A DNA stretch of 64,000 nt, from positions 736,001 through 800,000 of the forward strand of contig CAXXDQ010000004.1 of the NCBI GenBank assembly GCA_963664325.2. Direction: 5' to 3'. A program made the translations under genes and the position numbers. Each line of letters opens with the position of its first letter. Position 1 is the stretch's first letter. The notes beneath the pieces were generated by a model. It was not told where the DNA came from. It did no database searches and saw nothing but the letters and a program-made list of their open reading frames with translations. The stretch comes from Desulfomonilia bacterium (GTDB lineage Bacteria; Desulfobacterota; Desulfomonilia; UBA1062). Positions 8,341-43,612 of this stretch are shown in pieces.

Positions 8341-11300
8341 ATGAAGAGAAATGCAATTTTTCTGGCCATGCTTTCGATCATGGCCTTATGGTTGAGCGGC
8401 TGTATAACTTCCAGCAGCCCAAAAACCTCGGAAGTCACAATTAAAGTAGGCGATTCTCAAACATTTACGGTTTCCGGTGTTGGGAACGGCCCCTATACAT
8501 GGACCAAGGCCGGCATACCAGTCAGCGGGAACACGACTGCATCCTACACCTACACGGCGCTTTTGGAGGATTTAGGCACATTTTCTATAAAGGTGACTAC
8601 AAAAGATTCTCTTAATGTCACATCTAGCTTAGTATGGACGGTGAATGTAGTCAACGACCTGCCGCCTATAGCCAATGCCGGCCCTGACCAGAATCTCTAT
8701 TTCGGAACTCTGGTACAGCTCGACGGCAGCTTGAGCTCCGACCCTGAAGGGCAGCCGCTTTACTATCTCTGGGAGATAGTCGGACGGCCGGCAGGCAGTT
8801 CCGCTTCACTTGACAATCCCAATGCCGAGAAACCAACCTTTGTCCCGGACAAGCAGGGCGCCTATACAATCCGCCTGATTGTCAACGACGGCAGGCTGAC
8901 AAGCAGCGCTGATACGGTCATAATCAATTCCTTTACAGATTACGGTCCCCCAACAGCCAATGCAGGCCCTGACCAGAGCATCGTCTTCGGCAATATGGTC
9001 AGTCTGGACGGCAGTGCAAGCACAGACCCCGAAGGCACCCCGCTTACCTATATGTGGGCTATTGATTCAGGCCCGGCCGGAAGTGCTGCAGCGCTCGACG
9101 ATCCCACAAGCATGACACCGAAATTCACTCCCGACAAAAAAGGCGTGTATGTAGTCAGCCTGGTTGTAAGCAACGGCCTTTATGACAGCGGTATAGATCT
9201 TGTCACCATTGTTGTCTACAACACCATGCCCGTAGCCCGGGCCGGCGCTGATGTAACTATAGCAGATCTGGGCGGTTCGACAACGCTTGACGGCAGCCTT
9301 AGCTCCGATCCTGACGGCGACCCGATCAGCTATTCATGGACAATCATTTCGAGGCCGTATGGAAGCACAGCCGCCTTGAGCGATCCGTCCATCGTAAACC
9401 CGACCTTCACACCCGACAAAAAGGGCGCATATACCATTCAGCTGGTCGTGAGCGACGGCGATCTTTTCAGCAACGCTGACACAGTCATCGTCACCTGCTC
9501 CAACCATGTGCCGGTGGCCAATGCGGGTACTCCAATACATATTCCGTTCGGAAATACGGCACAGTTAAATGGCAGTGCCACTGACCCTGACAGCGACCCC
9601 ATGACCTATGCATGGACAATAACCGACAAACCGTCAGGAAGCATTGCAATGCTCTCCAATGCCACCATTCTCAACCCTACATTCAGGCCTGATGTGCAGG
9701 GTACTTATACGCTATCACTTGTCGCGACGGACAATACAGGTCTTTCCAGCGCACCATCATTTGTAACCGTATCTACCGAAAACCACCAGCCGGTTGCCGA
9801 TGCAGGCGACGACATCATCATGCCGAGCAATACCTCGGTGGGGTTAAACGGCAGCGGAACAGACGCTGACAGCGACCCTCTGACCTTCACATGGAGGGTA
9901 ATCACAGCCCCGATGGGCAGCGGCGGCGACAGCACGATCTCCGACCTTAACATCGCTAACCCGACCTTCACGCCTGATAAGAAGGGCGACTATCAGCTCG
10001 GCCTTATCGTGAACGACGGACAGATAGACAGTGCTGAAAGCACTATGAAGATACACGTAATTAACAATCCGCCTGTTGCTGATGCAGGTCCGACCCAGAA
10101 CGTCCACTATTCAACCCGTTTCGTCACTCTTGACGGAAGCGGCAGTTTTGACGTGGACGGAGATCCGCTGACCTACTCATGGAGGATCGTATCAAAGCCA
10201 TCCGGCAGCACAGCCGTGATCGTTAACCCGACAGATATTCACCCGACCATCACTCTGGATGTTCCTCAGGGATCCTGGGTGATCGGCCTGACTGTCAACG
10301 ACGGCGCTATTGACAGTGCGGAAAGTACGGTCAGCCTCAATTATATCGAAAATCAGCCCGTGGCTAATGCGGGTCCGAACCAGAGCAGGCATACCGCCTA
10401 TGGTGTTCCCAATACCTTCCAGCTCGACGGAAGCGGCAGTTCGGACCTTGACGGAGACGCACTGACCTACGCATGGACGCTCAAATCAGCTCCATCCGGC
10501 AGTACGGCGGCACTCTCCAACCGGTATATCGTGAACCCGACCATTACGGCTGATAAAGTCGGAGCTTATGTGATAGGTCTGATCGTCAATGACGGCCTCA
10601 TGAACAGTGCAGAAAGCACGGTCACCATCACCTATACCAATAACACGCCGGTGGCCAACGCGGGTCCGAACCAGAGCAAGCATTCCCCGCTTACCTTCCA
10701 GCTCGACGGAAGCGGCAGTTCAGACCTTGACGGAGATCCGCTGGCCTATACGTGGAGGGTCATATCAAAGCCATCCGGCAGCGCATCAGTGCTCTCCAGC
10801 ACGAATATCGTTAACCCGACCATCACGGCCGACAAGCTGGGATCATATGTGATCGGCCTGACCGCCAGCGACGGCTTTGTGAACAGCACGGAAAACACGG
10901 TCACCCTCACCGTCACCAATGCTGCACCGGTGGCCAATGCAGGCCCGAACCAGAGCAGGCATACAAGCCTGACCTTCCAGCTCGATGGCAGCGGCAGTTC
11001 GGATGGAGACAGCGACCCGCTGACTTACTCATGGAGGATCATATCAAAGCCGTCCGGCAGCGCATCAGTGCTCTCCAGCACCACCATCGTTAACCCGACC
11101 ATCACGACCGACAGGCCCGGGGCTTATTCTATAGGCCTGACAGTGAACGACGGCTGGGTCAACAGTACGGAAAGCACGGTCACCATCACCTACACAAACA
11201 ACGCACCGGTGGCCAATGCCGGTACTTATGCGGATGTCCTCTATGCAAACCGCAATGGCGTCACGCTCAACGGCGGGGCAAGTTCCGATCCTGACGGTGA

Positions 11301-11910
11301 CGCTATCACCTACGCGTGGACGATGACAGGGAAACCGTCCGGCAGCGCAGCAGCGCTGGCAAATGCCAACACCGCAACCCCGAGCTTCAACATGGATGTT
11401 CCAGGAACGTACAGCTTCAGCCTGGTCGTGAGCGACGCCTGGGTCAGCAGCAGCGCCAGCACGGCCTCGGTATCCAGCTCAATGAGTGCGTTATCTACCA
11501 ACTGGGACGATAACGTGATGTCGCCGTGGTACCAGATAACCAAGTCCAACATGGGAACCTGCGGAATCGCCACCAACGAATCCCATTCGTCACCGAGGAG
11601 TTTCAGGACCCAGAGCTGCACCGGTGTCCTCTGCGGTTCCGGCACCTACAAGTTCGGCAGGGATATAAATAAATACGTCACGACAATAAGCTTCTGGTCC
11701 ATGACATATTTCACATATTCCTATCCCAATGTTGACCTGTACGAGGGCAGCACCAAACTTGCCGACATCAACAATTACAACTCCTGGACACAGAGTACGT
11801 ATACTTACAACCGTATGTTCGGGACCCTTGCATTCCAGGATAACGGCAGCTATGCAGTTACAGGAAGAACCTGGAACGTCGATGACATAGTCATCAATGT
11901 TTGGAACTAA
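8341..11910 (+). CDS. Cassette 1 gene A: lipoprotein with N-terminal Ig module, 10 PKD/K319L-like repeats and a variable C-terminal beta-sandwich tip
   Basis: AGGAGG RBS, MKRN...WLSGC lipobox; ten PxAxAG..LDGS.S.DPDG..LTYxW repeats; ends VDDIVINVWN. Confidence 0.88.
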   Translation: MKRNAIFLAMLSIMALWLSGCITSSSPKTSEVTIKVGDSQTFTVSGVGNGPYTWTKAGIPVSGNTTASYTYTALLEDLGTFSIKVTTKDSLNVTSSLVWTVNVVNDLPPIANAGPDQNLYFGTLVQLDGSLSSDPEGQPLYYLWEIVGRPAGSSASLDNPNAEKPTFVPDKQGAYTIRLIVNDGRLTSSADTVIINSFTDYGPPTANAGPDQSIVFGNMVSLDGSASTDPEGTPLTYMWAIDSGPAGSAAALDDPTSMTPKFTPDKKGVYVVSLVVSNGLYDSGIDLVTIVVYNTMPVARAGADVTIADLGGSTTLDGSLSSDPDGDPISYSWTIISRPYGSTAALSDPSIVNPTFTPDKKGAYTIQLVVSDGDLFSNADTVIVTCSNHVPVANAGTPIHIPFGNTAQLNGSATDPDSDPMTYAWTITDKPSGSIAMLSNATILNPTFRPDVQGTYTLSLVATDNTGLSSAPSFVTVSTENHQPVADAGDDIIMPSNTSVGLNGSGTDADSDPLTFTWRVITAPMGSGGDSTISDLNIANPTFTPDKKGDYQLGLIVNDGQIDSAESTMKIHVINNPPVADAGPTQNVHYSTRFVTLDGSGSFDVDGDPLTYSWRIVSKPSGSTAVIVNPTDIHPTITLDVPQGSWVIGLTVNDGAIDSAESTVSLNYIENQPVANAGPNQSRHTAYGVPNTFQLDGSGSSDLDGDALTYAWTLKSAPSGSTAALSNRYIVNPTITADKVGAYVIGLIVNDGLMNSAESTVTITYTNNTPVANAGPNQSKHSPLTFQLDGSGSSDLDGDPLAYTWRVISKPSGSASVLSSTNIVNPTITADKLGSYVIGLTASDGFVNSTENTVTLTVTNAAPVANAGPNQSRHTSLTFQLDGSGSSDGDSDPLTYSWRIISKPSGSASVLSSTTIVNPTITTDRPGAYSIGLTVNDGWVNSTESTVTITYTNNAPVANAGTYADVLYANRNGVTLNGGASSDPDGDAITYAWTMTGKPSGSAAALANANTATPSFNMDVPGTYSFSLVVSDAWVSSSASTASVSSSMSALSTNWDDNVMSPWYQITKSNMGTCGIATNESHSSPRSFRTQSCTGVLCGSGTYKFGRDINKYVTTISFWSMTYFTYSYPNVDLYEGSTKLADINNYNSWTQSTYTYNRMFGTLAFQDNGSYAVTGRTWNVDDIVINVWN

Positions 11911-11929
11911 TTACATTATGGTAATGAGT

Positions 11930-12000
11930 GGGGAAGGCCCAGGCCTTCCCCGTGTACACACACCCGTGTGGGAGCCGGAGGAACTGGCCCCACCGACGGG
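11930..12000 (+). promoter_or_regulatory. A-B intergenic double stem-loop (copy 1)
   Basis: GGGGAAGGCC-CA-GGCCTTCCCC followed by a CCCGT..ACGGG bulged stem; equivalents occur in all four cassettes. Confidence 0.6.
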
Positions 12001-12025
12001 GCATTAAATAAGATGGAGGTAATGC

Positions 12026-14155
12026 ATGAAGCGAAACATTAATTTATTACTGATAATGATGATACCGCTGATGGTATTGTCGGGGTGCATCCTCACAACC
12101 ACCCCGAAAGAGGGTACTCCCATCAGTCTGGTCTGGGGCCAGAAACAGGCGTTCTCGGTCTCGGGCATGGGTACAAATCAATGGTACGTGGACAGTAACC
12201 TTATAACTGGTGAGACCAAAGCCAAGTATACCTTCAACAGCTACCTGTTCGGTCTCGGCAGCCACGAGGTAAAAGTCATAAACACTTTCGCACTGGGTGG
12301 CGGAGAGGCTGTCTGGACGGTCAATGTTAGTTCGACCCCGACCACTGTACCCCTGGCCACGGGCTGTGCGGATATCATGAACGCAGGCCTCATATGCGAC
12401 ACCACGCTCAACTGCAGCGACACGGTCCCTGAAGGTTCGGTGATCAGCCAGACACCGGAAGCGGGTGCCAGCGTGCCGGCAGGAACAACGGTGCACCTGA
12501 GCATCTCCAGCGGTTTGTGCACCAATCATGAAGTGGCTGTTCCGGCCGCAACGAGCTGTGCGGATATTGAAGCAGCGGGCCTTGTATGCAGCGTTTTCCA
12601 TAGCTGCAGCAACGAAGTCCCGGCAGGCATGGTAATCAGCCAGGCCCCGGTAGCGGGCACCATGGTAGTACCCGGAACGACAGTGACGCTTGAGATCTCC
12701 ACAGGCCCGTGCACGGGCGGGGAGATAGCGGTACCCAACGCTACAAGCTGTGATGATGTCGAGGCTGCAGGCTTTGTTTGCAGCCGCGAAAGGGAATGCA
12801 ACAATACCGTGCCTGAAGACGATGTAATCCGCCAGTCTCCGGCCCCCGGAGTCATGGCAATGCCCGGCACAACGGTAACCCTGACCCTGTCTACGGGGCC
12901 ATGTCCGCTGCTGGTGCCGGATGCGACATCCTGCTCCGAGCTCGAGGCCGCAGGCCTTGTGTGCAACCTGGTTGAAACCTGCAGCAACGAGGTGCCTGAG
13001 GCAGGAGGATTCATAAGCCTGAGCCCGCCTGCAGGTACGCCTACGGAACTGGGTGCGGTTGTGACACTTGTACTGTCGACCGGACCATGCACAGTGGAGG
13101 TGCCGGCCGCCGCGAGCTGTGCCGATATTGAGGCCGCCGGCCTTTTGTGCAGCATGAGCACACAGTGCAGCGATACCGTTGCCGAAGGTTCGGTGATCAG
13201 CCAGGATCCTGCGCCTGGTGCCATGGTGTCTCCGGGATCAACGGTTCAACTGGTCCTTTCGAGCGGTCCGTGTACAATACAGCTCCCTGCGCCAACAAAT
13301 GTTCAGGCAACGGATGTCGTACTGACCTCTCAAACCGACCCGCTGCTGAACAGCAACTTCAACAATAAGGTAAGGGTCACATGGAATGCGGTGCCTTATG
13401 CGCAGGCCTACAAGATATACCGTTCAGATTCACCCACAGGAACATATGACCTTGTCGGAACAGTCATAGCTCCTACGACATCATTTAACGACATGCAGAC
13501 CGAGGTGCTCACGCTCCCGACATGGCCCGACCCGCTCACCACTGAGGCTCTTGATACTTATGAGGCCGCAGCTAGGGCAGTTGTAAACAATTTCAAGAAC
13601 TTCAAGTACTATAAGGTCAAGGCCTGCAGTGCCGATCCTTTCCACCCCAACAGTGAGATGAGCGCCTATGATGAAGGCCGCATGGACTACACGCTTGAGG
13701 AATTCTACACCATAACCACAGGAGTGATCGAGGGGATTCCGATGGCAAAGATGATACTGGCTGCCAGTCCCATGGCAATAGGCACCAACATGTACTTCTA
13801 TGATTCGTGCGGCAGCGGGCAGATGCATGTTTCCATTACCGAGGACAGTCCTGCCAATATGAGTATTACCATTTCCAATTTCGTCGAATCCCTGGTCTTC
13901 ACTTCAGGCGGCGGCATCAACTGCAGTGAGAGCGGCGGCAGACGCATGATAATAAACAGCCTGGTCTCATCTGAAGATATCGATTTAGACATAAACGGAA
14001 CCCTGACAGGTTCGATGGATTTCACGGGCAATTATGCCGGCAAGTTCACGAGCATGAGTGTTCCTGTCACCGGCGGGGTGCTGCAGACCGGGACATGCAC
14101 CGTTATATACAACGGCCAGACTTCAACAGGCCACACCTGCAGTTTCTTCGACTAA
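12026..14155 (+). CDS. Cassette 1 gene B: lipoprotein with five 4-Cys PASTA repeats, FN3 domain and unknown C-terminal domain
   Basis: VLSGC lipobox; VP...AAGLVC...VPEGxVISQxPxAG...V.L..S.GPC x5; PTNVQA..VTW..YKIYR..YYKVKA (FN3). Confidence 0.85.
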   Translation: MKRNINLLLIMMIPLMVLSGCILTTTPKEGTPISLVWGQKQAFSVSGMGTNQWYVDSNLITGETKAKYTFNSYLFGLGSHEVKVINTFALGGGEAVWTVNVSSTPTTVPLATGCADIMNAGLICDTTLNCSDTVPEGSVISQTPEAGASVPAGTTVHLSISSGLCTNHEVAVPAATSCADIEAAGLVCSVFHSCSNEVPAGMVISQAPVAGTMVVPGTTVTLEISTGPCTGGEIAVPNATSCDDVEAAGFVCSRERECNNTVPEDDVIRQSPAPGVMAMPGTTVTLTLSTGPCPLLVPDATSCSELEAAGLVCNLVETCSNEVPEAGGFISLSPPAGTPTELGAVVTLVLSTGPCTVEVPAAASCADIEAAGLLCSMSTQCSDTVAEGSVISQDPAPGAMVSPGSTVQLVLSSGPCTIQLPAPTNVQATDVVLTSQTDPLLNSNFNNKVRVTWNAVPYAQAYKIYRSDSPTGTYDLVGTVIAPTTSFNDMQTEVLTLPTWPDPLTTEALDTYEAAARAVVNNFKNFKYYKVKACSADPFHPNSEMSAYDEGRMDYTLEEFYTITTGVIEGIPMAKMILAASPMAIGTNMYFYDSCGSGQMHVSITEDSPANMSITISNFVESLVFTSGGGINCSESGGRRMIINSLVSSEDIDLDINGTLTGSMDFTGNYAGKFTSMSVPVTGGVLQTGTCTVIYNGQTSTGHTCSFFD

Positions 14156-14167
14156 GAGGAGGTTATA

Positions 14168-16659
14168 ATGAGAAAACACATATTATTGATTTTTATCGTC
14201 ATGTTAACAGTTATGCTGGGAGGGTGTATAATAGGAAAAACACCTTCATTAGATAATGTCACCATGTCCTATGGCGAAACGAAGACATTCAGCATAAAAG
14301 TAATAGGGGACCATACCTATACCTGGACCCTTGACGGTGTTCCCCTTTCAGAAACAGGGAAATCCTATAATTATACAGCACTGGCAGGCAAACATATCCT
14401 CATAGTCCGTGCGACATACACCTATGGTGAGGACACTGAGGTCTGGAACATCTTTGCAAACAGTCCGCCAGCCGCCAATGCCGGGCCGACCCAGACCGTC
14501 ACGGAGGGTATAACCGTAACGTTAGACGCCTCCAATTCAACAGACCCTGACGGCGATATAGCCTCCTATCTCTGGGAACAGACAGGAGGCCCTGCAGTCA
14601 CACTCTCCGATGCAAGTGCCATACAACCTACGTTCACATCGCCCATTGTACCTATCGGAGGGGCAGCTCTCACCTTCAAAGTGACCGTAACTGATGCAAC
14701 CTCTCTGACATCAACCGCCACCACGATAGTCAATGTAACCTGGTCGAACAGGCCGCCAACAGCTAATGCCGGTCCTGACCAGACGGTCGGCGAGAATGTA
14801 ACCGTGGCCCTTAACGCATCTGGCTCGACAGACCCGGATGACGGGATCGCATCCTATTCATGGGAGCAGATAGAAGGGCCATTGCCTTATGTAACGCTAT
14901 CAGACCCGGGTGCGGTGAACCCGACATTCACGTCCCCCTATGTAGGCATCGGTGGAGAAGCGCTTGTCTTCAAACTGACAGTAACCGATGTCGGAGGCCT
15001 CAAATCGACCGATACCGTCATCGTTAATGTTACCTGGTCAAACCTGCCGCCGACAGCTGAAGCAGGCCCGGACCAAGCTGTCTCAGAGGGCAGCATTGTA
15101 ACGCTCGATGCTTCATCTTCCGTCGATACGGATGACGGCATAGCATCCTACGCCTGGTTACAGACTGGCGGCGCTGTGGTCACACTCTCCAATCCTGCTG
15201 CCGTGAAGCCGACATTCACAACCCCTGATGTGGGAATGGCGGGGGATGTCCTGACCTTTGAGCTCACCGTAACCGATAATGGAGGACTCCAAGCGACAGA
15301 TACAGTAACAATCACAATCAACTGGGTAAACGCACCGCCGGTGGCCAATGCGGGTCCTGACCAGAGCATAGTCAAAGATTCAGTGGTAACACTAGACGGC
15401 ACGGCCTCAACCGATCCTGACGACGGGATTGCTTCATATCTCTGGCAGCAGATAAGCGGGCCGGCAGTAACACTTCTCAATGCAAACACAGACACCGCAA
15501 CATTCACGGCAAACGTTGCAGTCAATTCAGTGCTTACCTTCAGACTGACCGTAACCGATGTCGGCGGACTGACAGGAACAGATACATGCTCAGTTACAAT
15601 TCTCGCTGCCCCCATATACGTCAAGATATCCGGCGGGATTTCCTACTCCGTAGCCATCAAGAGCGACGGTACTCTCTGGGCCTGGGGGCTTAACGCATAC
15701 GGCCAGCTGGGTGACGGGACCACGATAGACAAGAATGTTCCCACTCAGATCGGCACTGATACCAACTGGGCTTCAGTAGCAGCCGGGGATCGCCATACAG
15801 TGGCCATCAAGACTGACGGTACGCTCTGGGCCTGGGGATACAACGCAAACGGCCAGCTCGGCGACGGAACCACAGCCCTGAAGATAGTTCCTATTCAGAT
15901 CGGCACAGGCACAAACTGGATTTTAGTGGACGCAGGGGCCAGGCACACAGTGGCCATGAAGAACGATGCCTCTATCTGGGCCTGGGGTGACAACAGCAGA
16001 GGCCAGCTTGGCGATGGGACCACAACTACCAGGCTGGTTCCAACCAAGATCGGCAGCAACACCTGGGTCATGATAAATGCCGGCGCCCTTCATACCGCGG
16101 CCATTGACACTGCCGGTAAGCTCTGGACCTGGGGTGCCAACAACTACGGCCAGCTTGGCGACGGGACCCTGGTGGACAGACTGGTTCCCACTCATATCGG
16201 TACAGACACAACCTGGGTGCAGGTAAACGCCGGTGACAACCATACAGTGGCAATAAAGGCCGCCGGGACCCTGTGGGCCTGGGGCTATAACAACTACGGC
16301 CAGCTCGGCGACGGGACCACGGTAAACAAGACGGCGCCCCCACTCAGATAGGCATTGCAACCTCCTGGGCATCCGGCAGATGCCGGGACTTCGCATACTG
16401 TTGCAGTAATGACCGACGGGACGCTATGGGCCTGGGGTTATAACAGCAACGGGCAGCTTCGGGCTCGGAGACACGGTCCAACAGAGCAGCCCCAGCGCAG
16501 GTAGGCTCGGACACCGATTGGGCTACCGCGGATGCCGGCTACTGGCACAGCCTGGCCAAGAAGGCGGACGGGACGCTTTGGACCTGCGGTTATAACAATA
16601 AAGGTCAGCTCGGCGACGGGACCACTGTTGACAAGTGGGTCCTGACACAGATCTGGTGA
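14168..16659 (+). CDS. Cassette 1 gene C: lipoprotein with 4 PKD-like repeats and an RCC1/BLIP-II-like propeller; 3' end frameshifted after ~16335
   Basis: MLGGC lipobox; repeated [19 protein letters not shown] blades. The ORF stops at 16351, but blades continue in other frames to TQIW* at 16659, as in C3. Confidence 0.8.
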
Positions 16660-16678
16660 AGCTTAAGGAATACAGGTC

Positions 16679-16762
16679 ATGAAACTATATAACTTAAATA
16701 GAAAAATATTATGGCTCCCAGAAAAGGTAAGGACTGCAACTTCAGCGTTGCATGTCAAATAA
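16679..16762 (+). CDS. Putative leader uORF before A2 (27 aa, ends SALHVK)
   Basis: AGGAA..ATG; MKLYNLNRKILWLPEKVRTATSALHVK*; spans the TGCAAC/GTTGCA hairpin. Lies in an indel-rich segment. Confidence 0.3.
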   Translation: MKLYNLNRKILWLPEKVRTATSALHVK

Positions 16763-16778
16763 AATGCAGGAGGTTACA

Positions 16779-19263: not shown

Positions 19264-19383
19264 TTACAGTATGGTAATGCAGGGGGAAGGTGTGAAGCCT
19301 TCCTCCCCGCATAAACATACCGGTGCTGGGGCCTTTGGAATTGGCCGCTTGAGCCGGGCATTAAAATAAGACGGAGGTAATGC

Positions 19384-21537: not shown

Positions 21538-21546
21538 GAGGAGGTT

Positions 21547-24054: not shown

Positions 24055-24108
24055 GACCGGCGAGGTGGGCAGGTAATAGATTCAAAAAGTAATTAAGCAA
24101 TAAATGAA

Positions 24109-28104: not shown

Positions 28105-28248
28105 ATGTTCTTGGGGATAGTGAACAGAGAAGGGCCAAAATCCAATGTTAACCAGTCTGCAAATTTTCTGAGATTTTCCCCGGAAGAGACAGGATGCAAT
28201 CCGAAGGATCGCATCACTGTGAAATTGGAGGTGTTGCTATGTTCTTGA
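28105..28248 (+). CDS. Putative small leader ORF (47 aa)
   Basis: GAGGT RBS; MFLGIVNREGPKSNVNQSANFLRFSPEETGCNPKDRITVKLEVLLCS*. Confidence 0.35.
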   Translation: MFLGIVNREGPKSNVNQSANFLRFSPEETGCNPKDRITVKLEVLLCS

Positions 28249-28355
28249 GGACAATGAACAGGGATGGACCAGGATACCCAGTAAACCAGTCAGAGATTTT
28301 TCTAGGCATAAACAAAAGATATGGGCTGCAACCTTCAGCGTTGCATGTCAAATAA
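28239..28355 (+). CDS. Putative small leader ORF (38 aa)
   Basis: GGAGGT RBS; MFLRTMNRDGPGYPVNQSEIFLGINKRYGLQPSALHVK*; paralog of the previous ORF. Confidence 0.35.
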   Translation: MFLRTMNRDGPGYPVNQSEIFLGINKRYGLQPSALHVK

Positions 28356-28371
28356 AATGCAGGAGGTAACA

Positions 28372-31410: not shown

Positions 31411-31528
31411 TGACATCACGGCAGCAATTGGAGGGGAAGGCGTGGAGCCTTCCCCATATAAACACCCCCACTGCGGGACCGGCGCAAATGGCCCCCAGGC
31501 AGGGCATTAAAATAAACGGAGGTAATGC

Positions 31529-33667: not shown

Positions 33668-36179
33668 ATGATGAGAAAACACATTCTATTGCTTTTTATC
33701 GTTCTGCTGGCGGCTATGCTGAGCGGGTGTATTGTCTACAAGACACCTTCGGCCAACAATGTCGTCATGTCATACGGCCAGACCAAGACCTTCAGCGTCA
33801 AGGTCGCTGCAACCAATGACAAGCTCTACTGGTACATAGACAATGTCCCCCAGGCTGTCCCGGTTACCACGACATCGATCTCCTACACGGCAACCGGCGG
33901 ACATCATACAATTATATGCCGTGCGGTGTATGTATTCGACCGTGTCCTCGAGGACACGGCAGTCTGGTATGTAGACTCTAACAGTCCGCCAACGGCGAGT
34001 GCGGGGGATGACCAGCTCGTCGGTGAAGGCATAACAGTGACGCTGGACGGTTCCAACTCCAGCGACCCGGACAGCGATATAGTGTCCTATGCCTGGGTGC
34101 AGACAGACGGGCCTGCGGTCACACTCACCGGTGCCGATACCGACAAGCCGACATTTACGTCACCCACCGTAGGCATGGGCGGGGCCTCGCTCGGCTTCCA
34201 GCTGACCGTGACTGACGCCACGGCACTGACTTCCACTGCAACCACAATAGTCAACGTCTCCTGGTCCAACGCCCCGCCGTCAGCCAATGCAGGGCCTGAC
34301 CAGCTGGTTGGCCAGGAAGAGCTGGTAACGCTGGACGCATCGGCATCCACAGACTCAGATGACGGCATCGCCTCATACTCATGGCAGCAGATAGCAGGGC
34401 CTCTGCCCTTCGTTACGCTGTCAGACCCGGCCGCTATCAACCCGACATTCACATCCCCGATAGTGGGCCAGGGCGGAGAGGCGCTTGTATTCAAACTTAC
34501 AGTTACCGATGTCGGCGGACTCAAAGCGACAGACACCGTCATCGTCAACGTCTCCTGGTCCAACACCCCGCCAGTAGCCATTGCGGGACCTGACCAGACC
34601 AAGGCCGAGGGCAGCGTGGTTACACTCGACGCATCGTCCTCATACGATACCGACGACGGCATCGCATCCTACTCCTGGGTGCAGACTGGCGGAGCATCGG
34701 TGACACTCAGCAACCCGCATGCCATCAAGCCGACATTCACGACACCCGATGTAGGCATGGCCGGAGATGTCCTGACATTCGAACTCACGGTCACCGACCG
34801 CGGCGGGCTGCAAGCGACAGACTCTGTAGTAATCGACATCACATGGGTGAACGCGCCGCCCGTGGCCGAAGCGGGTCCGAACCAGACCGTGGAGAAAGGC
34901 CTGGTGGCAACGCTCAACGGCACGGGCTCGACCGATCCTGACGACGGGATTGCATCCTATCTCTGGCAGCAGACAGGCGGGCCGGCCGTAACACTTGTGG
35001 ATGCCAATACGTCAATCGCAACATTCACGGCGAACGTCGCGGTCAATTCGGTGCTCACCTTCAGGCTGACCGTGACCGATGTAAACGGGCTCTTCACTTC
35101 AGACACATGCACGGTCACCGTTGTTGCGGTGCCCATATTTGTAAATATCTCCGGCGGATTTAATTTCTCCGCCGCCATCAAGAGCGACGGTACGCTCTGG
35201 ACCTGGGGCCTCAACGCCTATGGCCAGCTCGGCCAGGGCGACCTGGTAAACAGGCTGGTCCCGACACAGGTGGGAACCGACACCAACTGGGCATCAGTGG
35301 CTGCCGGCAGCTACCATACCGTTGCAATCAAGACCGACGGGACTCTCTGGGCCTGGGGCTACAACGCCGACGGCCAGCTTGGCGACGGGACCACTGCTAC
35401 CAAGATCGTCCCGACCAAGATAGGAACAGGCACCAGCTGGATCGTGGTGGACGCAGGGGCAATGTACACCGTGGCCATGAAGAACGACGCCTCGCTCTGG
35501 TGCTGGGGTGACAACAGCAAAGGCCAGCTCGGCGACGGCACAACGACGGGCAGGCTTGCGCCGACACGCATAGGAGCCAGCAACACCTGGGTCATGATAG
35601 ACTCCGGCCTGCAGCATACCGCGGCCGTTGACTCCAGCGGCAGGCTCTGGTGCTGGGGCCTCAACGCGTTCGGCCAGCTCGGCGACGGTACCATGGTAAA
35701 TAAGCTTGTTTCCCACCCAGATCGGCACAGGCACCACCTGGGTCTATGCAAGCGCCGGCGACAACCACACCGTTGCCAGGAAGGCGGACGGGACTCTGTG
35801 GGCCTGCGGTTCCAACAGCAACGGCCAGCTCGGACTCGGTGACCTGGCGGACAGGCTGACCCTGACGCAGGTAGGCTCGGATACCGACTGGGGCCGGGCA
35901 GATGCCGGAACCACGCACACCGCAGCAGTGAAGGCCAGCGGTACGCTCTGGTGCTGGGGCTATAACAGCAACGGCCAGCTCGGCGACGGCACCACTACCG
36001 ACAGCCTGGTGCCGATACAGATCGGAACCGACACAGACTGGGCCTCCGCAGACTCCGGCTATTACCATTCCCTTGGCATCAAGGCAGGCACAGCGCTATG
36101 GGCATGGGGTAAGAACAACGACGGCCAGCTCGGCGACGGGACCACTGTGGACGAGTGGACTCCGGTGTCGATCTGGTGA
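33668..36179 (+). CDS. Cassette 3 gene C: PKD x4 + RCC1-like propeller lipoprotein, single +1 frameshift at ~35710
   Basis: ORFs 33668-35842 and 35706-36179 join at GTTTCCC (paralog C1 has GTTCCC); ends VSIW*. Confidence 0.8.
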
Positions 36180-36304: not shown

Positions 36305-38812
36305 ATGAAGAGAAATGCAATCTTGCTAGCCATGCTATCGATCATGGCAATATGGTTGAGTGGCTGCATAACGGGCCACAGCCCTAGCGGTGATGTGAAA
36401 ATCACTACAGGGGATTCTCAGAAATTCTCGGTAACGGGATCGAATAACGGACCTTACACATGGTACTGGGACAACGTCCTCATTACGGGGACCGCTGGCA
36501 CCTCCTACACCTACCTTGCCAAATCGGCGGATGTAGGTGAGCACGTCCTGAGGGTCGAGACAACGGACACGACCACCGGCGCTCTGCTCACCCTTGAATG
36601 GAATGTGACTGTCGTCGAGGACATCAAGCCGGTGGCAGTCATCTCGGGCTCCAATCCGCTGGACTTGACCTTTGACGGCGTCACCCCGGTCACGCTCGAC
36701 GGCAGCAGCAGCTTCGACCCGGAAAGCAAGCCTCTCAGCTACATCTGGGAGATTGTGGCGCAACCAGCGGGCAGCACTGCAAAAATTGACAATCCGGGCG
36801 CCATGATCACGAGCTTCATCCCTGACAAGATCGGCGCCTACACCATCCGCCTGATGGTGAACGACGGCAGGCTGAACAGCACAGGCGCCGGGCTGGTAGT
36901 CAACGTCTACACAAACAACGTGCCGCCTACCGCCAATGCCGGACCTGACCAGAACGTTCTGTTCGGCAACACCGCCCTGCTCGACGGGACAGGCAGCTTC
37001 GATCCTGAAGCCCAGCCGCTCACCTACAAGTGGGCCATAGACTCAGGCCCGTCAGGCACAGCGGCCACATTAGACGATCCAACAAAGGCCCAGCCGGTCT
37101 TCACGCCGGATATGAAGGGCATGTACGTAATCAGCCTGGTGGTGAACGACGGCGAGCTCGACAGCAACATGGACTTCGTCGTCATAACGGTCTTCAGCGA
37201 CGCGCCTGTGGCCGATGCGGGCGCCGCCATATTAGTCCCTGATCTCGGAGGCACAGCGCACCTGGACGGCAGTGCAAGCTATGACCCGGACGGAAGGCCT
37301 CTCACCTACGAGTGGTCGCTCATATCAAAGCCAAAGAGCAGCACTGCTGAACTCAGCAGCACGACAATCGTCAACCCGACGCTGACCTGCGACAAAAAGG
37401 GCGCGTATGTGGCAAAGCTCACAGTGAACAACGGCGATCTCAGCGCCTCGGACCAGGTGCTCATCACATGCAGCGACCAGGTGCCGGTTGCTAACGCAGG
37501 TCCTGACATAGAGATACCCTTCTTCAGCACCGCCAATCTCGACGGAAGCGCGAGCTATGACCCGGACAATGACCCGATCACCTACGCATGGTCGATCGTC
37601 TCTGCACCATCGGGCAGCACTGCAGCACTTTCAAGCACCACCATCGTCAACCCGACCTTCACTCCGGACGTAAGGGGTGTTTATGAGATCAGCCTTATAG
37701 TTACGGACAACGACGTTCCACCGATCTCCAGCGCACCCGACACGGTGCTGGTGACTGTCAAAAACCATCCGCCTGTAGCCGATGCCGGCGCTGACATCAA
37801 CGTCAGCCTAAACGGCACAGCCAGCCTCTTTGGCAGCGGCTCCGACTTCGACGGGGACGCCATAGTGGGCTATGCATGGACCATCATCAGCGCGCCTTAC
37901 GGCAGCACGGCAGCTATTTCCGACCCGGCCATAGCCGACCCGACATTCACGCCCGACATTAGGGGCGACTATACTCTGGGCCTCTCGGTTTACGACGGTA
38001 TGGACTGGAGCGCAGTGAACACCATGCAGGTTCACGTGTTCACGAACAGGCCTATCGCAGTCGCCGGCCCTGACCAGGCTGTGCATTATGCCAACCGCAA
38101 CAATATCAATCTTGATGGCACCGCAAGCTATGACCCGGACGGAAACCCGATCATGGGCTACCGCTGGGAGGTTGTATCCAAACCGGCGGGAAGCAACCCT
38201 GTGCTTTCGAATGACCTGATCGCCAAGCCGACACTGTCGATCGATAAATTCGGCACGTACCAGGTCAACCTGATCGTAACCAATGGAAACATCGAAAGCC
38301 CTCCAAGCACCATCACAATCACCACGCCGTATACCAGCGTCATAACAGAAAATTGGGAAAGCGGCGTTGGAACTTGGACATCAGTTAATACCGGCAGCGT
38401 GACTTCCGTTGGAATATCAACTTATTCGTATCACTCCGCCACTCATTGCTGGTCGGCATCATCAGGCGCTGCGGGTGGATGTTCCGGTCAGACAAATACC
38501 CACCGGGTCCATAAGGCTCTGCCTGCAGGCACACATGTTGTTAAGCTGAGCGTATGGAATGCTTATAGAATTACCACAACTTCTCTTGGGTTAACGGGCG
38601 GAGTATCTAATCAGATGTTTTATACTAATACAACTGCTTTAGGCAGTATACCTCAGTCCGGCTCTCAGATGACGTGGGTTTATAACGAACTTACGCTCAA
38701 CCAGGAATTAACCGACATCGGACTGTATGTCGAGCTTTTTGGTATGAATTTCCTGGGGACTGCATCTGGTTTAATATACTGGGATGATCTTCAAATTACT
38801 GTATGGAGTTAA
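36305..38812 (+). CDS. Cassette 4 gene A: lipoprotein with 6 PKD-like repeats and a variable tip
   Basis: WLSGC lipobox; stalk closest to A2; ends WDDLQITVWS. Confidence 0.88.
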   Translation: MKRNAILLAMLSIMAIWLSGCITGHSPSGDVKITTGDSQKFSVTGSNNGPYTWYWDNVLITGTAGTSYTYLAKSADVGEHVLRVETTDTTTGALLTLEWNVTVVEDIKPVAVISGSNPLDLTFDGVTPVTLDGSSSFDPESKPLSYIWEIVAQPAGSTAKIDNPGAMITSFIPDKIGAYTIRLMVNDGRLNSTGAGLVVNVYTNNVPPTANAGPDQNVLFGNTALLDGTGSFDPEAQPLTYKWAIDSGPSGTAATLDDPTKAQPVFTPDMKGMYVISLVVNDGELDSNMDFVVITVFSDAPVADAGAAILVPDLGGTAHLDGSASYDPDGRPLTYEWSLISKPKSSTAELSSTTIVNPTLTCDKKGAYVAKLTVNNGDLSASDQVLITCSDQVPVANAGPDIEIPFFSTANLDGSASYDPDNDPITYAWSIVSAPSGSTAALSSTTIVNPTFTPDVRGVYEISLIVTDNDVPPISSAPDTVLVTVKNHPPVADAGADINVSLNGTASLFGSGSDFDGDAIVGYAWTIISAPYGSTAAISDPAIADPTFTPDIRGDYTLGLSVYDGMDWSAVNTMQVHVFTNRPIAVAGPDQAVHYANRNNINLDGTASYDPDGNPIMGYRWEVVSKPAGSNPVLSNDLIAKPTLSIDKFGTYQVNLIVTNGNIESPPSTITITTPYTSVITENWESGVGTWTSVNTGSVTSVGISTYSYHSATHCWSASSGAAGGCSGQTNTHRVHKALPAGTHVVKLSVWNAYRITTTSLGLTGGVSNQMFYTNTTALGSIPQSGSQMTWVYNELTLNQELTDIGLYVELFGMNFLGTASGLIYWDDLQITVWS

Positions 38813-38929
38813 TAACGGCTGGCAGTGCAGAGGGAAGGTTCGATCCCTTCCCTTTGCACTTGACCCTAAAGGGGCCGGCCGAAAAGGCCTCCTTGGAAGG
38901 GCGATTATAATAATAAACGGAGGTAATGC

Positions 38930-41101
38930 ATGAAAAGAAACATTAAATTATTATTGATAATGATGATACCGCTGCTGGTATTGTCGGGGTGTATTATATC
39001 ATCCAACCCCCCGGCCGGTACCATTAAGCTAACCTGGGGCCAGAGCCAGACCTTCAAGGTTATCGGCATAGGGACCAATCAATGGTATCTGGACAGCGCC
39101 CCGCTTACAGGCGAGACCAAATCCAGCTATGTTTTCAAGAGTACCGAACATGTGCTCGGGACCTATCAGCTCAAGGTCATATCGACATCTCCGTTAGGCA
39201 ACGGTGAGCGCGACTGGACGATCACGGTAAGCTCTGTTCCGGTCCTTGTACCTGCTGCAGCAGGCTGTGCTGATGTCTGGGGCGTGGGCCTCGTCTGCTC
39301 CACTGAAACCAGTTGCAGCGACACTGTGGCTGAAGGAGAAGTGATCACCCAGTCGCCTGCGGCAGGTAAAAGCGTACCGGCAGGCTCGACCGTGCAGCTG
39401 ACCCTTTCCTCCGGCCTGTGCGGCATCCACGAGATCAAGGTGCCTGCGGCGATCAGCTGCGCATCCGTCGAGGCGGCAGGTTTCGTATGCAGCACGACAA
39501 CAAGCTGCAGCAACGATGTGCCGGCCGGAATAGTCCTCGAACAGACTCCGGCTGCCGACACGATGGCCATGCCTGGCACCACGGTCAACCTGGTCCTCTC
39601 ATCAGGCCCGTGCACTGCCGAGGTCGAGGTGCCGAACGCGACGAGCTGCGCCGACGTCGAAGCGGCGGGCTTTGTCTGCAGCCGTTTATACGAGTGCAGC
39701 ATGACCGTGCCCATAGACGCTGTGATCAGCCAGTCACCGTCTCCAGGCATGATGGAGATGCCGGGCTCGGTCGTAGAACTGACGCTTTCCTCAGGAATAT
39801 GCAAGATGCAGGTACCGGACGCGACCACGTGCGAGGAACTCACGGAAGTGGGCCTTGTCTGCAACCTGGTGAATGTATGCGACAACGCGCATCCGACGCC
39901 AGGCGAATTCATAAGCCTGAGCCCGGTCGCAGGAACGCCAATCGCACCTGGCGCGACAGTGACGCTCACGCAGTCTATCGGCCCGTGCACCGTGATTGTG
40001 CCTGATGCTGCGAGCTGCGCAGACATAACCGCAACCGGCTGGCTCACATGCAACCTCGTAACCGAGTGCAACGACGATATCCCGGCCGGAAATAAAATCA
40101 GCCAGAACCCGGCACCCGGCACTGAGGTGGCCGCCGGATCATCTGTCGAGCTGGTCATCAGCACCGGCAAATGCCCTGTAATGCTGCCCACGCCGACAAA
40201 CGTGAGCGCGACCGACGTGGTCCTGACCTCTCAGACCGACCCGATGCTCAACCACAACCTGAACGACAGGGTTACGGTGACATGGACAGGGGTCGCAGGC
40301 GCCGAGTACTACAAGGTCTACCGCGCCGACTCTCCAGTCAGCACATACAACTACATCGGCAGGACAGTAGGGACAGAGACCACATACAACGACATGCAGA
40401 GCGCGCAGACCATTCCGACCCTGGTGATACCACCGATGCCCGACATGCCGAACGGCCAGGGCAAGCAGGCCCAGAACTCGGCAGCGCTGGATGCCTACGA
40501 ACTCGTGGTAAGGCCTATTGTCCAGCAGTTCAAGGACTTCAAGTATTACAAGGTGAAGGCCTCAACCACAGACCCGGCATTCCTGGACAGCGCGTTCAGC
40601 AACTATGACGAGGGGCGCATGGACTACACGCTCGACGAGTTCTACGTCGTCTCGAAGGGCGTAATCGATGGCATACCGCTTGCGAGGCTGATGATAGCCG
40701 GCGACCCGATAGGCCTGGGCACGAACGCATACTGGTATGACAACTGCGGCGACGGCAACATGCACTTCACCATTACCATATCGGGCACAAGCGGCCTGAT
40801 CACCATGACCGTCACCAACTTCGTCGAGTCCGCGTACTTCAACCTGCTGAACAACACCATGGACTGCAGCCCGACAAAGAGAAAGCAGATGATAACCAAT
40901 ACCGTGAACCCCGTTTCAGGCACGGTAAACACCAGCATGAACGGCACTTTGACAAGTGCGGGGGGATTGGTGGTCACCGGTAACTATGTAGGTAAGATGA
41001 CCACCATAAGCATCCCGGTCACAGGTGGGAACATAATGCCAGGCACATGCACAATCATCTACAACGGCCAGACCGTAACCGGTCATGCGTTCGAGTTCTA
41101 G
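38930..41101 (+). CDS. Cassette 4 gene B: Cys-PASTA x5 / FN3 lipoprotein
   Basis: Closest to B2; ends HAFEF. Confidence 0.87.
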   Translation: MKRNIKLLLIMMIPLLVLSGCIISSNPPAGTIKLTWGQSQTFKVIGIGTNQWYLDSAPLTGETKSSYVFKSTEHVLGTYQLKVISTSPLGNGERDWTITVSSVPVLVPAAAGCADVWGVGLVCSTETSCSDTVAEGEVITQSPAAGKSVPAGSTVQLTLSSGLCGIHEIKVPAAISCASVEAAGFVCSTTTSCSNDVPAGIVLEQTPAADTMAMPGTTVNLVLSSGPCTAEVEVPNATSCADVEAAGFVCSRLYECSMTVPIDAVISQSPSPGMMEMPGSVVELTLSSGICKMQVPDATTCEELTEVGLVCNLVNVCDNAHPTPGEFISLSPVAGTPIAPGATVTLTQSIGPCTVIVPDAASCADITATGWLTCNLVTECNDDIPAGNKISQNPAPGTEVAAGSSVELVISTGKCPVMLPTPTNVSATDVVLTSQTDPMLNHNLNDRVTVTWTGVAGAEYYKVYRADSPVSTYNYIGRTVGTETTYNDMQSAQTIPTLVIPPMPDMPNGQGKQAQNSAALDAYELVVRPIVQQFKDFKYYKVKASTTDPAFLDSAFSNYDEGRMDYTLDEFYVVSKGVIDGIPLARLMIAGDPIGLGTNAYWYDNCGDGNMHFTITISGTSGLITMTVTNFVESAYFNLLNNTMDCSPTKRKQMITNTVNPVSGTVNTSMNGTLTSAGGLVVTGNYVGKMTTISIPVTGGNIMPGTCTIIYNGQTVTGHAFEF

Positions 41102-41116: not shown

Positions 41117-43612
41117 ATGATAAGAAAACATCTATTATTGATATTTATCGTAATGGTCACGGCCATACTGGGCGGGTGCGTCATAAACAGAACACCCGCA
41201 TCCAATGATGTAAACGTGCAGCTGGGTACCACGAAGGATTTCAGCGTATATGCGATACCGGGCGACGGTGCCTATAAATGGACACTGGACGGAGAAGTCC
41301 TGACGGAAACGACCGACAAGTACACCTTCACGGCGACTGTATCTGGCAAGCATGTCCTCATGGTCGAGGTTCCGCCTTCAATAGGCGTCAAGACACAGGC
41401 ATGGACAATCCACGTGAACTTCAAGCCTGTTGCCGATGCGGGGCCAGCCCAGCTCGTGGGCGAGAACGTGCTCGTGACTCTGGACGGGTCGAACTCACAT
41501 GACCCCGACGGCGATATAACTACCTATGCCTGGGTACAGACAGACGGGCCTGAGGTCACGCTTGACGATGCGAGCGCGATTCAGCCGACCTTCACCAGCC
41601 CACCAGTCCCGATAGGCGGGGTGTCCCTGGGCTTCGACCTGACAGTGACTGACTCTACAGGGCTGACTTCCACAGCGAGCACCATCGTGAACGTCTCTTG
41701 GGGCAACCTGCCGCCGACAGCGAACGCAGGCCCGGACCAGACCGTAGATGAGCAGACCCTTGTCACCCTTGACGGTTCAGGCTCGACCGACCCGGACGAC
41801 GGGATAGCAACATACGCCTGGAAGCAGCTTGCAGGCCCGAGGGTGGTACTCTCAGACCCGGCGGCAGTAATGCCTACATTCACGACGCCGGATGTTGGCT
41901 CTTCAGGAGAGGTCATCCAGTTCAAACTGACGGTGACTGACGTGGGCGGACTGAAATCAACGGACACGGTCATCATCAACGTAAGCTGGGTAAACATACC
42001 GCCCGTGGCCAATGCAGGACCTGACCAGACAGTTGCCGAGGGCAGTGTCGTGACGCTCGACGGTTCAGCCTCATCCGACATCGATGACCCGATAACCACA
42101 TATGCCTGGATCCAGACCGCAGGACCGTCGGTCACGCTCTCTAACCCGGCAGCTGTCAAGCCCACATTCACTACGCCGGACGTCAACATAGGCGGGGCGA
42201 TACTGACCTTCCAGCTGACCGTGACCGACAAGGGCGGCCTGCAGTCCACAGACTCAGTGGACATAAACGTCACCTGGGTGAACGCGCCGCCTGTGGCCGA
42301 AGCGGGGCCCAACCAGAATGTAGGCAGATACACAACAGTATACCTCGACGGCACGGGCTCTCACGACCCGGATTCCGACGGCATAGCATCCTATCTCTGG
42401 ACGCAGACCGCCGGCACAACGGTGACCCTTATCAACGCCACTTCGTCAATAGCATCGTTCTTCGCATCACCTGCGATCGGATCGACCTTCACATTCCAGC
42501 TGAAGGTTACCGACCCGAGCGGGCTCAACTCAACAGACACATGCATAGTCAAGATCACCACCGAAGGGCCAGTCTACAAAAAGATCTCCGGCGGGATGAA
42601 CTTCTCATTGGCGATCAAGGCTGACGGAACCCTGTGGGCATGGGGCACCAACGGCTTCGCCCAGCTCGGCGACGGCACCACGGTTAACAAGGAGCTCCCG
42701 GAGCAGATAGGCACCGGCACAAACTGGGTGAGCGTAGCAGCCGGCGACAACTTCAGCCTCGGAATCAAGTCCGACGGCACGCTCTGGGCATGGGGACTCA
42801 ACAACCACGGGCAGCTCGGTCTCGGGGACACCGTGACAAGGCTTGTCCCGACAAAGGTAGGCTCGGCACAGTGGGTCTCAATTGATGCCGGATCCGCCCA
42901 TTCAGTCGGCCTGCTGTCGGACGGCACGCTGCAGGCCTGGGGCTATGGCGCCTACGGCCAGCTCGGAAGCGGCGGCTTGTCTGATCAGCTCACCCCGTCA
43001 TACGTGGGCGACGGCCTTCCAGGCTGGAGGATGATCAGCGCAGGCCGCAACCACACCGCGGCGATCGACGGCAACGGCAAGCTCTGGACATGCGGCCGAA
43101 ACAGCTATGGCCAGCTCGGCATAGGCAGCTACGTCGACCAGGCATCACTCACGCAGGTCGGCACAGCGACCAACTGGGAGTATGCAAGCGCAGGCGATGA
43201 CCATACGGTTGCCAAGACGACCACCGGGCAGCTCTGGTCCTTCGGAAAGAACCTGCAGGGCCAGCTCGGCCTCGGCGACACCACATCAAGGAATGCCCCT
43301 GTGCAGATAGGCACGGCCACAAACTGGAGCTCGGTTGACACCGGCGCCGCGAACACTGCGGCCATCAAGACCGATGGTACTCTCTGGTGCTGGGGCTACA
43401 ACAGCAACGGTCAGATCGGCGACGGCACGACGACCAACAGGACATCACCGACCGCGATCGACGGAACCGGCTGGCTCAGTGCATCTGTCGGATATTTCCA
43501 CACCATGGGGGTCAAGTCAGACGGTACGCTCTGGTGCTGGGGCCTCAACTCCTTCGGACAGCTCGGCCTTGGCGACCTGGTTGACAGGCTTGTCCCGACC
43601 CAGACCTACTGA
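41117..43612 (+). CDS. Cassette 4 gene C: PKD x4 + RCC1-like propeller lipoprotein
   Basis: ILGGC lipobox; closest to C2 (both contain [11 protein letters not shown]). Confidence 0.88.
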   Translation: MIRKHLLLIFIVMVTAILGGCVINRTPASNDVNVQLGTTKDFSVYAIPGDGAYKWTLDGEVLTETTDKYTFTATVSGKHVLMVEVPPSIGVKTQAWTIHVNFKPVADAGPAQLVGENVLVTLDGSNSHDPDGDITTYAWVQTDGPEVTLDDASAIQPTFTSPPVPIGGVSLGFDLTVTDSTGLTSTASTIVNVSWGNLPPTANAGPDQTVDEQTLVTLDGSGSTDPDDGIATYAWKQLAGPRVVLSDPAAVMPTFTTPDVGSSGEVIQFKLTVTDVGGLKSTDTVIINVSWVNIPPVANAGPDQTVAEGSVVTLDGSASSDIDDPITTYAWIQTAGPSVTLSNPAAVKPTFTTPDVNIGGAILTFQLTVTDKGGLQSTDSVDINVTWVNAPPVAEAGPNQNVGRYTTVYLDGTGSHDPDSDGIASYLWTQTAGTTVTLINATSSIASFFASPAIGSTFTFQLKVTDPSGLNSTDTCIVKITTEGPVYKKISGGMNFSLAIKADGTLWAWGTNGFAQLGDGTTVNKELPEQIGTGTNWVSVAAGDNFSLGIKSDGTLWAWGLNNHGQLGLGDTVTRLVPTKVGSAQWVSIDAGSAHSVGLLSDGTLQAWGYGAYGQLGSGGLSDQLTPSYVGDGLPGWRMISAGRNHTAAIDGNGKLWTCGRNSYGQLGIGSYVDQASLTQVGTATNWEYASAGDDHTVAKTTTGQLWSFGKNLQGQLGLGDTTSRNAPVQIGTATNWSSVDTGAANTAAIKTDGTLWCWGYNSNGQIGDGTTTNRTSPTAIDGTGWLSASVGYFHTMGVKSDGTLWCWGLNSFGQLGLGDLVDRLVPTQTY

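Follow-up and report, generated by a model that had tools for sequence, protein, structure and literature searches.

We interrogated a 64,000-nucleotide stretch of DNA from a Desulfomonilia bacterium, hereafter the window (G000:C4:736001-800000, where G000 is the source genome of 4.3 Mb in 9 contigs), in which positions 8341-43612 are occupied by a repeated array of large genes that we call A, B and C. Open reading frame (ORF) listing and translations show 12 co-oriented genes on the forward strand in the order A-B-C, four times over, as claimed in a first-pass annotation of this DNA. These genes form two six-gene blocks (hexamers) of two cassettes each. The gaps between B and C measure 12, 9, 9 and 15 nt in cassettes 1 to 4, in agreement with the spacing of 9-15 nt given earlier, and those between A and B measure 115, 120, 118 and 117 nt. 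Apart from A, B and C, only a kinase/regulator pair lies within 8341-43612; domain scans of this interval bear out the earlier statement that it holds no enzyme, transporter or secretion gene, and no enzyme family was matched by the A, B and C proteins in Pfam and NCBIfam scans. The twelve genes are as follows.

8341-11910, forward strand: A1, from ORF and translation; N-terminal Ig-like module, about 10 PKD domains (K319L-like PKD, 10 stretches), C-terminal jelly-roll tip
12026-14155, forward strand: B1; N-terminal Ig-like module, five Cys-rich PASTA domains, FN3 with helical insert, orphan C-terminal beta-sandwich
14168 to about 16659, forward strand: C1; N-terminal Ig-like module, four PKD domains, RCC1 propeller; 3' end frameshifted in the assembly
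16779-19263, forward strand: A2; A type, about 6 PKD domains (estimated from length); 5' end frameshifted in the assembly
19384-21537, forward strand: B2; B type, from ORF, pairwise identity and Pfam
21547-24054, forward strand: C2; four PKD domains and seven RCC1 repeats
28372-31410, forward strand: A3; about 8 PKD domains (estimated from length); tip about 17-25% identical to the A1 tip
31529-33658, forward strand: B3; B type, from ORF, pairwise identity and Pfam
33668-36179, forward strand: C3; C type, with one frameshift near 35705 in the assembly
36305-38812, forward strand: A4; six PKD domains and the jelly-roll tip used for the structure model
38930-41101, forward strand: B4; B type, from ORF and Pfam
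41117-43612, forward strand: C4; C type, four PKD domains and seven RCC1 repeats

As listed, the 3' end of C1, the 5' end of A2 and C3 (near 35705) are out of frame in this assembly. We compared the region with contigs from two public runs of one sample in one study, possibly the source of the assembly, which cover 15800-17600. The run contigs lack extra letters at eight sites between 16334 and 17161 (nine letters in total over about 830 bases), four of them in C1 (16334, with two letters, 16373, 16458 and 16478) and four in A2 (16920, 16932, 17086 and 17161). In the run-contig version, C1 encodes 828 amino acids (aa) and A2 encodes 826 aa beginning with a lipoprotein signal peptide, and both resemble their paralogs in this. 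Since the run contigs do not contain those letters and both genes are then open, the C1 and A2 frameshifts are assembly insertions, and we rejected a reading of the two genes as decaying pseudogenes. Orthologs of the frameshifted genes are intact in three relatives. The interval 16334-17161 is a local patch of poor consensus with about 5x word depth.

All A, B and C proteins start in the same way: a signal peptide leads into the lipobox L-S-G-C, I-[IL]-S-x-[ST]-P comes next, and an Ig-like domain (about 90 aa) completes the module. Taking a signal peptide that ends in [LVI][ASTVI][GAS]C as the lipoprotein criterion, we found a lipobox (L-[SG]-G-C) behind a basic and hydrophobic N-terminus in 12/12 array genes, in line with the first-pass annotation, whose domain calls (PKD stalk and tip in A, Cys-rich PASTA and FN3 in B, PKD and RCC1 in C) are likewise supported by Pfam profiles and AlphaFold2 (AF2) models. 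In A, 6-10 tandem PKD domains come after the N-terminal module, and the C-terminus is formed by a further domain of about 160 aa. The PKD and K319L-like PKD matches (PF22352, PF18911) exceed the gathering score, with 327.5 bits in A1 (10 stretches) and 202.6 bits in A4 (6 stretches). The A4 tip begins with W-E/D-x-G...W and finishes with D-D-I-x-x-T-V-W, and the A proteins end in ...V-W-[NDQS]. Neither the four A tips nor the B head gave anything above threshold in Pfam at E up to 10, and the tips contain no PA14 domain; the sole PA14 match is marginal and falls within an A1 PKD repeat (25.7 bits, 0 stretches). The AF2 model of the A4 tip is a beta-jelly roll (predicted local distance difference test score, pLDDT, 88.3) whose top PDB matches are carbohydrate-binding modules (CBMs): 8xmz, 2xom, 2zex, 1v0a, 4xuo and 4bj0, with probability 1.00 and TM-scores of 0.39-0.55. 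The PDB matches cover CBM16, 61, 11, 22 and 4, a porphyran CBM and gingipain adhesin domains.

The stalk of B is made of PASTA domains (PF03793, cut-off 23.2 bits), with scores of 165.2 bits in B1, 139.8 in B4 and 145-147 in B2 and B3, over 4-5 stretches (five in B1). These repeats align to the PknB extracellular domain (E 1e-9), and each carries four Cys, every one of which is conserved in at least 90% of 27 family members. PASTA is the sole Pfam family in B, with no transpeptidase of the penicillin-binding protein (PBP) type and no Ser/Thr kinase attached; the NCBIfam model PknB_PASTA_kin reaches 124.9 bits against a cut-off of 450, covering the PASTA part only. The repeats give way to an FN3 domain with a helical insert and then to a pair of helices, and the protein ends in a beta-sandwich of about 120 aa (B head AF2 model, pLDDT 89.5). 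Foldseek searches of the B head against PDB and a viral fold library returned FN3-driven matches only, with TM-scores of at most 0.35, and the best score of the last domain in Protein Atlas was 0.76, below the useful level. C carries four PKD domains (236 bits in C2 and 214 bits in C4, four stretches each) and a seven-blade RCC1 propeller (PF00415, PF25390; 250.8 bits in C2 and 229.2 bits in C4, seven stretches each), which also matches WD40_RLD with 275 bits in C2 and 270.7 bits in C4 against a cut-off of 150.

Using a hidden Markov model of the first 115 residues, we found the N-terminal module in 56 ORFs of the genome. In 45 of the 56, the motif L-S-G-C-I-[IL]-S-x-[ST]-P lies within the first 90 residues; I follows the Cys at +1 in 40/45 and P stands at +6 in 39/45. 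Twenty of the 56 were scanned with Pfam and carry PKD stalks, FGE-sulfatase-like heads (n=3), VWA, cadherin-like, FN3, DUF5018 and Methylase_S-like domains (n=1 each) or no known domain (n=7). The three FGE-sulfatase-like (SUMF1) C-termini belong to the module-bearing lipoproteins G000:C3:685170-686249, C3:689293-690315 and C5:44985-47216, one of which has a 4-PKD stalk, and SUMF1 is another head type of this superfamily. The N-terminal module may act as a sorting signal. The genome encodes BamA and LolA, indicating that the organism has an outer membrane and thus two membranes. The Slam profile (PF04575) has no match in the source genome, in a search whose control likewise matched nowhere.

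The cassettes are related to each other in pairs. Cassettes 1 and 3 are 69% (A1/A3), 76% (B1/B3) and 73% (C1/C3) identical, cassettes 2 and 4 are 55% (A2/A4), 66% (B2/B4) and 67% (C2/C4) identical, and cross-pair identities are about 50-62%; by sequence, these similarities reflect homology and not chance. In a maximum-likelihood tree, 17 B proteins fall into three clades with good support, which correspond to position-1 B, position-2 B and the B proteins of a second, pair-type locus described below. Within the tree, B3 and B4 cluster with the one hexamer that the relatives have, B1 and B2 being placed immediately outside. It is the second hexamer that is orthologous to the one in the relatives, and the two have a common right flank. 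Together, the identities and the tree indicate that a trio became a hexamer and that the hexamer was later doubled, which agrees with the history proposed at first sight.

We then followed the genes beyond the array. Of the seven full-length B genes in the source genome, four lie in the window and three at a second locus (C3, about 1056-1071 kb), where A5-B5, A6-B6 and A7-B7 form pairs without any C, behind two giant PKD lipoproteins. RCC1 propellers are encoded by the four C genes and nowhere else in the genome. Searching 41 genomes, namely the source and 40 relatives, we found full-length B in 4/4 genomes of the genus (the source plus G001, G002 and G003) and, outside the genus, in G014 only. 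The G014 protein (641 aa) is solitary, with no A or C adjacent, and G013, also outside the genus, encodes a PASTA-PKD fusion protein. A-B(-C) units occur in 4/4 genus genomes: each of the three relatives has one hexamer plus A-B pairs, with one cassette of the G001 hexamer recovered on a 16-kb contig. Looked for in other genomes, as the annotation had suggested, the A-B-C order recurs in the three relatives. These C-less pairs, three in the source genome and others beside the one hexamer of the genus relatives, together with the solitary B of another genus and the restriction of RCC1 to the four C genes, leave the annotation's inference that the trio is an obligate unit unsupported.

One further metagenome contig has A adjoining B. 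Among 5.8 billion proteins, just 37 align to 96% or more of the B head region, every one a PASTA protein of 568-728 aa, and 7 more matches share only the FN3. A scan of public contigs for the array yielded only L001, a near-duplicate of G003. L001 is titled 'uncultured Oscillospiraceae bacterium' and has the same hexamer and flank as G003, its two A tips differing from those of G003 by about 2 and about 6 residues out of 175; since NCBI labels the G003 proteins Desulfomonilia, the title probably stems from a binning error. The two giant lipoproteins, which bear the N-terminal module and lie directly upstream of the A-B pairs (G000:C3:1071128-1086748, reverse strand; L023/L024), have stop-to-stop frames of 3177 and 1987 aa, and their counterparts in the relatives measure 2035-2040 aa and 1101 aa.

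Heads and stalks of these proteins evolve differently. Across 16 A proteins, most pairs of tips are 16-38% identical, compared with 40-81% for the stalks, and orthologous position-1 A genes have stalks that are 65-69% and tips that are 21-29% identical. One tip type can recur on stalks of differing background: the A2 tip shares 63% identity with the tip of an A protein of the G003 pair locus, and the A7 tip is 77-81% identical to relatives' tips whose stalks are about 51% identical. B5 and B6 (L023, 7217-9319 and 12271-14385, reverse strand) have DNA that is 100% identical from about nt 150 to 1200 (about 1050 bases, the PASTA stalk) and 40-83% identical in the head, which points to a recent gene conversion that stopped at the head; a collapsed assembly repeat is a less likely cause. 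A search with the B head profile of 1.84 billion representatives returned mostly FN3-only matches, and 9 of the 150 matches listed extend beyond the FN3. Among these metagenomic proteins the B head sits on TSP3 or MopE-like Cys-rich stalks in place of PASTA, and two of them, P0080 and P0075, also start with the lipobox-Ig module of the array proteins, so that PASTA looks like one of several interchangeable stalks. Hypervariable heads on conserved or homogenised stalks fit the earlier suggestion that the cassettes are interchangeable specificity variants.

The spacing of the genes and the elements between them are consistent with co-transcription, which we predict from the sequence features listed here.

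8196-8340, forward strand: operon leader of A1, with a short upstream ORF (MNRDGP), a small hairpin (CTGCAAC...GTTGCA) and a ribosome-binding site (RBS), GGAGG
28225-28371, forward strand: operon leader of A3, resembling the A1 leader, part of it duplicated further upstream
11911-12025, forward strand: A-B intergenic element with two GC-rich hairpins (GGGGAAGG...CCTTCCCC, then GGCC...GGCC), then an RBS
19264-19383, 31411-31528 and 38813-38929, forward strand: the other copies of the A-B intergenic element, with the same two hairpins and RBS
24109-24143, forward strand: intrinsic terminator, a 16-bp stem followed by a T run, which closes the first six-gene unit after C2

Long AT-rich upstream regions stand only before A1 and A3, whose leaders (about 147 nt) are 75% identical. 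The small hairpin and AAUAAAAUGCAGGAGG occur before A1-A4 and A5; in an alignment of 13 sequences, this hairpin has compensatory changes in 2/5 pairs. For the A-B spacer, compensatory changes affect 7/10 predicted pairs across 14 junctions from 4 genomes. With the hairpin element present at all four junctions of the array and this covariation, the intergenic elements are conserved as had been noted. An Rfam scan of the whole window gave 0 matches, so that neither the leader nor the A-B element is in Rfam. The site at 24109-24143 is the only long GC-rich terminator-like site on the forward strand of 8341-24471, and C4 is followed by a hairpin without a T run. An upstream ORF (MNRDGP ... KRYG) lies behind a GGAGG site in each hexamer leader, in the window (8196-8340 and 28194-28355) and ahead of the first A gene in L012, L015 and L016. 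In G001-G003 it has about 42-57 codons and ends inside the RBS-to-start spacer of A, and before A1 it is shortened to 15 codons. It may encode a leader peptide or serve translational coupling.

Taken together, we favour, with slightly better than even confidence, the view that the array encodes modular envelope lipoproteins of stalk-and-head build that act in binding, a family restricted to this lineage, and not an enzyme pathway. The proteins would share one plan, in which the N-terminal module leads into a rigid repeat stalk (PKD, or PASTA with four conserved Cys) and then into a distal head, namely a CBM-like jelly roll in A, FN3 and the orphan beta-sandwich in B, and the seven-blade RCC1 propeller in C. 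They would be anchored in the outer membrane and are probably surface-exposed; A, B and C would act by binding, the A tip probably to a glycan, and PASTA would here be a stalk and not a sensor of the cell's own wall. The genes may be made together as long operons, with one AT-rich upstream region and one conserved leader for each six-gene block, B and C only 9-15 nt apart, hairpins between A and B and a strong terminator after C2. The unit that is conserved would be the A-B pair, to which C would have been added at the hexamer locus. Specificity would reside in the heads, diverging or swapped, on stalks kept alike by gene conversion, so that a cell may display several binding variants.

Several points weigh against this reading. 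Location, binding and expression are each predicted. The resemblance of the A tip to CBMs does not go beyond the fold (TM-scores of 0.39-0.55, 10-18% identity). The B1 and B3 heads are 64-89% identical, compared with about 17-25% for the A1 and A3 tips, so that variation in the A heads is not matched by variation in the B heads. A periplasmic role would fit the known binding of PASTA domains to peptidoglycan or beta-lactams. Finally, the family is confined to a few uncultured genomes.

Of the alternatives, we consider it unlikely that A, B and C are independent paralogous adhesins that are neighbours only through tandem block duplication, their order having no functional meaning. In favour of this, A, B and C have one N-terminal module in common, the superfamily to which they belong counts 56 ORFs, many of them grouped in small clusters elsewhere, and the duplication history accounts for the repeated order. 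However, A and B are adjacent at two loci and in 4/4 genus genomes though the three B clades are old, the structured spacer between them is kept at 14 junctions, and the B-C spacing is tight in all four cassettes. We think it distinctly unlikely that the proteins form a scaffold on the inner face of the outer membrane, in which B attaches through its PASTA domains to the peptidoglycan of the cell itself, with A and C as spacers or tethers, so that the envelope is shaped or stabilised. For a scaffold, the repeats of B genuinely match the PASTA family and resemble the extracellular domain of PknB, the organism has an outer membrane and a Lol pathway, for which the periplasmic face is the default, and 2/4 genus genomes have a second lgt paralog next to the array. 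Against a scaffold, the B head occurs on non-PASTA stalks in relatives, which makes PASTA look replaceable, hypervariable heads and many paralogs fit outward binding better than a housekeeping structure, and stalks of 6-10 PKD domains are estimated to be longer than the periplasm is wide. An obligate hetero-oligomer, with A, B and C of one cassette as cognate partners in a fixed three-part surface appendage, is very unlikely: the strict A-B-C order (four times in the window and again in the single hexamer of three relatives), the B-C spacing suggestive of coupled translation and the constant B and C stalk lengths across paralogs speak for it, but the C-less A-B pairs of this genome (which has no RCC1 outside the C genes) and of its relatives, the solitary B of another genus and the unlinked variation of A tips and B heads speak against it, as does the range of about 6-10 PKD domains in the A stalks, with which heads cannot sit at a fixed distance.

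A more specific proposal, which we regard as a long shot, is that the heads of A and B (and C) constitute a polymorphic code for docking between cells, used in partner or kin recognition and displayed through an undescribed export route for surface lipoproteins that reads the N-terminal module (C-I-[IL]-S-x-[ST]-P and the Ig domain, in about 45-56 lipoproteins).

We compared the stalk-and-head family with known systems. The component domains themselves are already known; what our searches did not find described is their arrangement in ordered cassettes, a lipoprotein with a Cys-PASTA stalk in a bacterium that has two membranes, the orphan head of B, and the N-terminal module common to all these proteins. 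Pfam and NCBIfam name only generic domains, database records read 'hypothetical' or 'PASTA domain-containing', and literature searches returned nothing relevant (a paper on NTP-dependent conflict systems was judged unrelated), so that the first-pass annotation's failure to recognise a described system holds up. The five repeats of B score far above threshold for Pfam PASTA, the family found in PknB/Stk1 kinases and PBP2x, and align to the PknB extracellular domain, whereas B has no kinase or transpeptidase and is a lipoprotein of a two-membrane bacterium; to our knowledge, classic PASTA domains lack the four Cys per repeat. Lig-type lipoprotein adhesins of Leptospira resemble the array proteins in that numerous Ig-like repeats and a C-terminal domain of another type come after a lipobox, and in forming paralog families, but their repeats are Big_2 and not PKD, and they are not known to have a sequence relation to the array or paired B or C genes. 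The CBM16/61/11/22/4 domains and the gingipain K1-K3 adhesin domains resemble the A4 tip model in their beta-jelly-roll fold, at TM-scores of just 0.39-0.55 and with no sequence-family match.

The nearest analogues are the SusE/F-type glycan-binding lipoproteins and TraA, and the array qualifies as a member of neither group. According to PMC4850273, PMC7974029 and PMC7618045, SusE/SusF-type surface glycan-binding proteins of Bacteroidota, like the array proteins, are lipid-anchored, with an N-terminal Ig-like domain, spacers and CBM-like binding domains, vary in sequence between species and are encoded in co-transcribed loci, sometimes beside a sensor/regulator. Unlike Sus loci, the array has no SusC/SusD transporter or glycoside hydrolase in or beside 8341-43612, belongs to another phylum and has no sequence family in common with them; PKD/PASTA stalks and an RCC1 partner are not Sus features. 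Myxococcus TraA, as described in PMC3820747 and PMC6372800, is also a stalk-and-head protein with a lipid or tag anchor, a Cys-rich repeat stalk and a variable distal domain that sets specificity, and both come from the former Deltaproteobacteria. In PMC3820747, TraA has an N-terminal PA14-like head and a C-terminal MYXO-CTERM tag and is a single polymorphic locus, whereas the array proteins have an N-terminal lipobox and a C-terminal head and belong to a family with many paralogs per genome. MYXO-CTERM models have no match in the array proteins in the NCBIfam scan.

The family provides a concrete set of candidate surface binding proteins for Desulfomonilia, with a clear evolutionary signature, in that heads vary while stalks are homogenised, and it brings with it an orphan head domain and a candidate sorting module. 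Desulfomonilia are uncultured anaerobes, and we know of nothing reported about their cell surface; the papers on them that our literature search returned concern ecology and phosphite oxidation. The family would offer a handle on attachment in consortia if its heads prove to bind partner cells or polymers, and if the N-terminal module is an export tag, it would point to a route for lipoprotein surface display beyond Bacteroidota, spirochaetes and Neisseria.

The G+C content of the array is 0.53-0.60, compared with about 0.48. The rise lies mainly at codon position 2 (0.48-0.53 versus 0.32-0.42), indicating that it reflects the amino-acid make-up, and position 3 is mildly higher. A foreign-island origin was rejected on this concentration at position 2.

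We also examined the genes between the hexamers and on the flanks.

24472-27081, forward strand: multi-PAS histidine kinase, from the profile scan, between the hexamers
27078-27731, forward strand: response regulator of the NarL/LuxR type, from the profile scan, between the hexamers
43684-46112, both strands: right flank, kept in G003, with a 250-aa protein of no family (forward), a 225-aa membrane protein of no family (reverse) and the lgt paralog
45183-46112, reverse strand: lgt paralog, TIGR00544 about 188.5-188.9 bits against a cut-off of 118.9, two genes from C4

The kinase/regulator pair had been counted as part of the array, but no such pair lies beside the array in G003, and its link to the array is uncertain. 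The lgt reported beside the array is genuine by TIGR00544, but it is adjacent in just 2/4 genus genomes (G000 and G003, not G001 or G002). The other lgt of the genome lies at G000:C8:276539-277318 and scores 248.1 bits, the array-side copy being the more divergent. The scanned flanking genes encode a ClC channel, Lgt, NifS, NadA, FdhD, Cys/Met enzymes, RND metal efflux and an acyl-CoA dehydrogenase. Just past the lgt paralog, at 46102-46551 on the forward strand, lies a fragment that is 51% identical to residues 36-192 of the kinase at 24472-27081; it contains an internal stop, with its ORF ending at 46377, and looks like a remnant of the rearrangement that doubled the hexamer.

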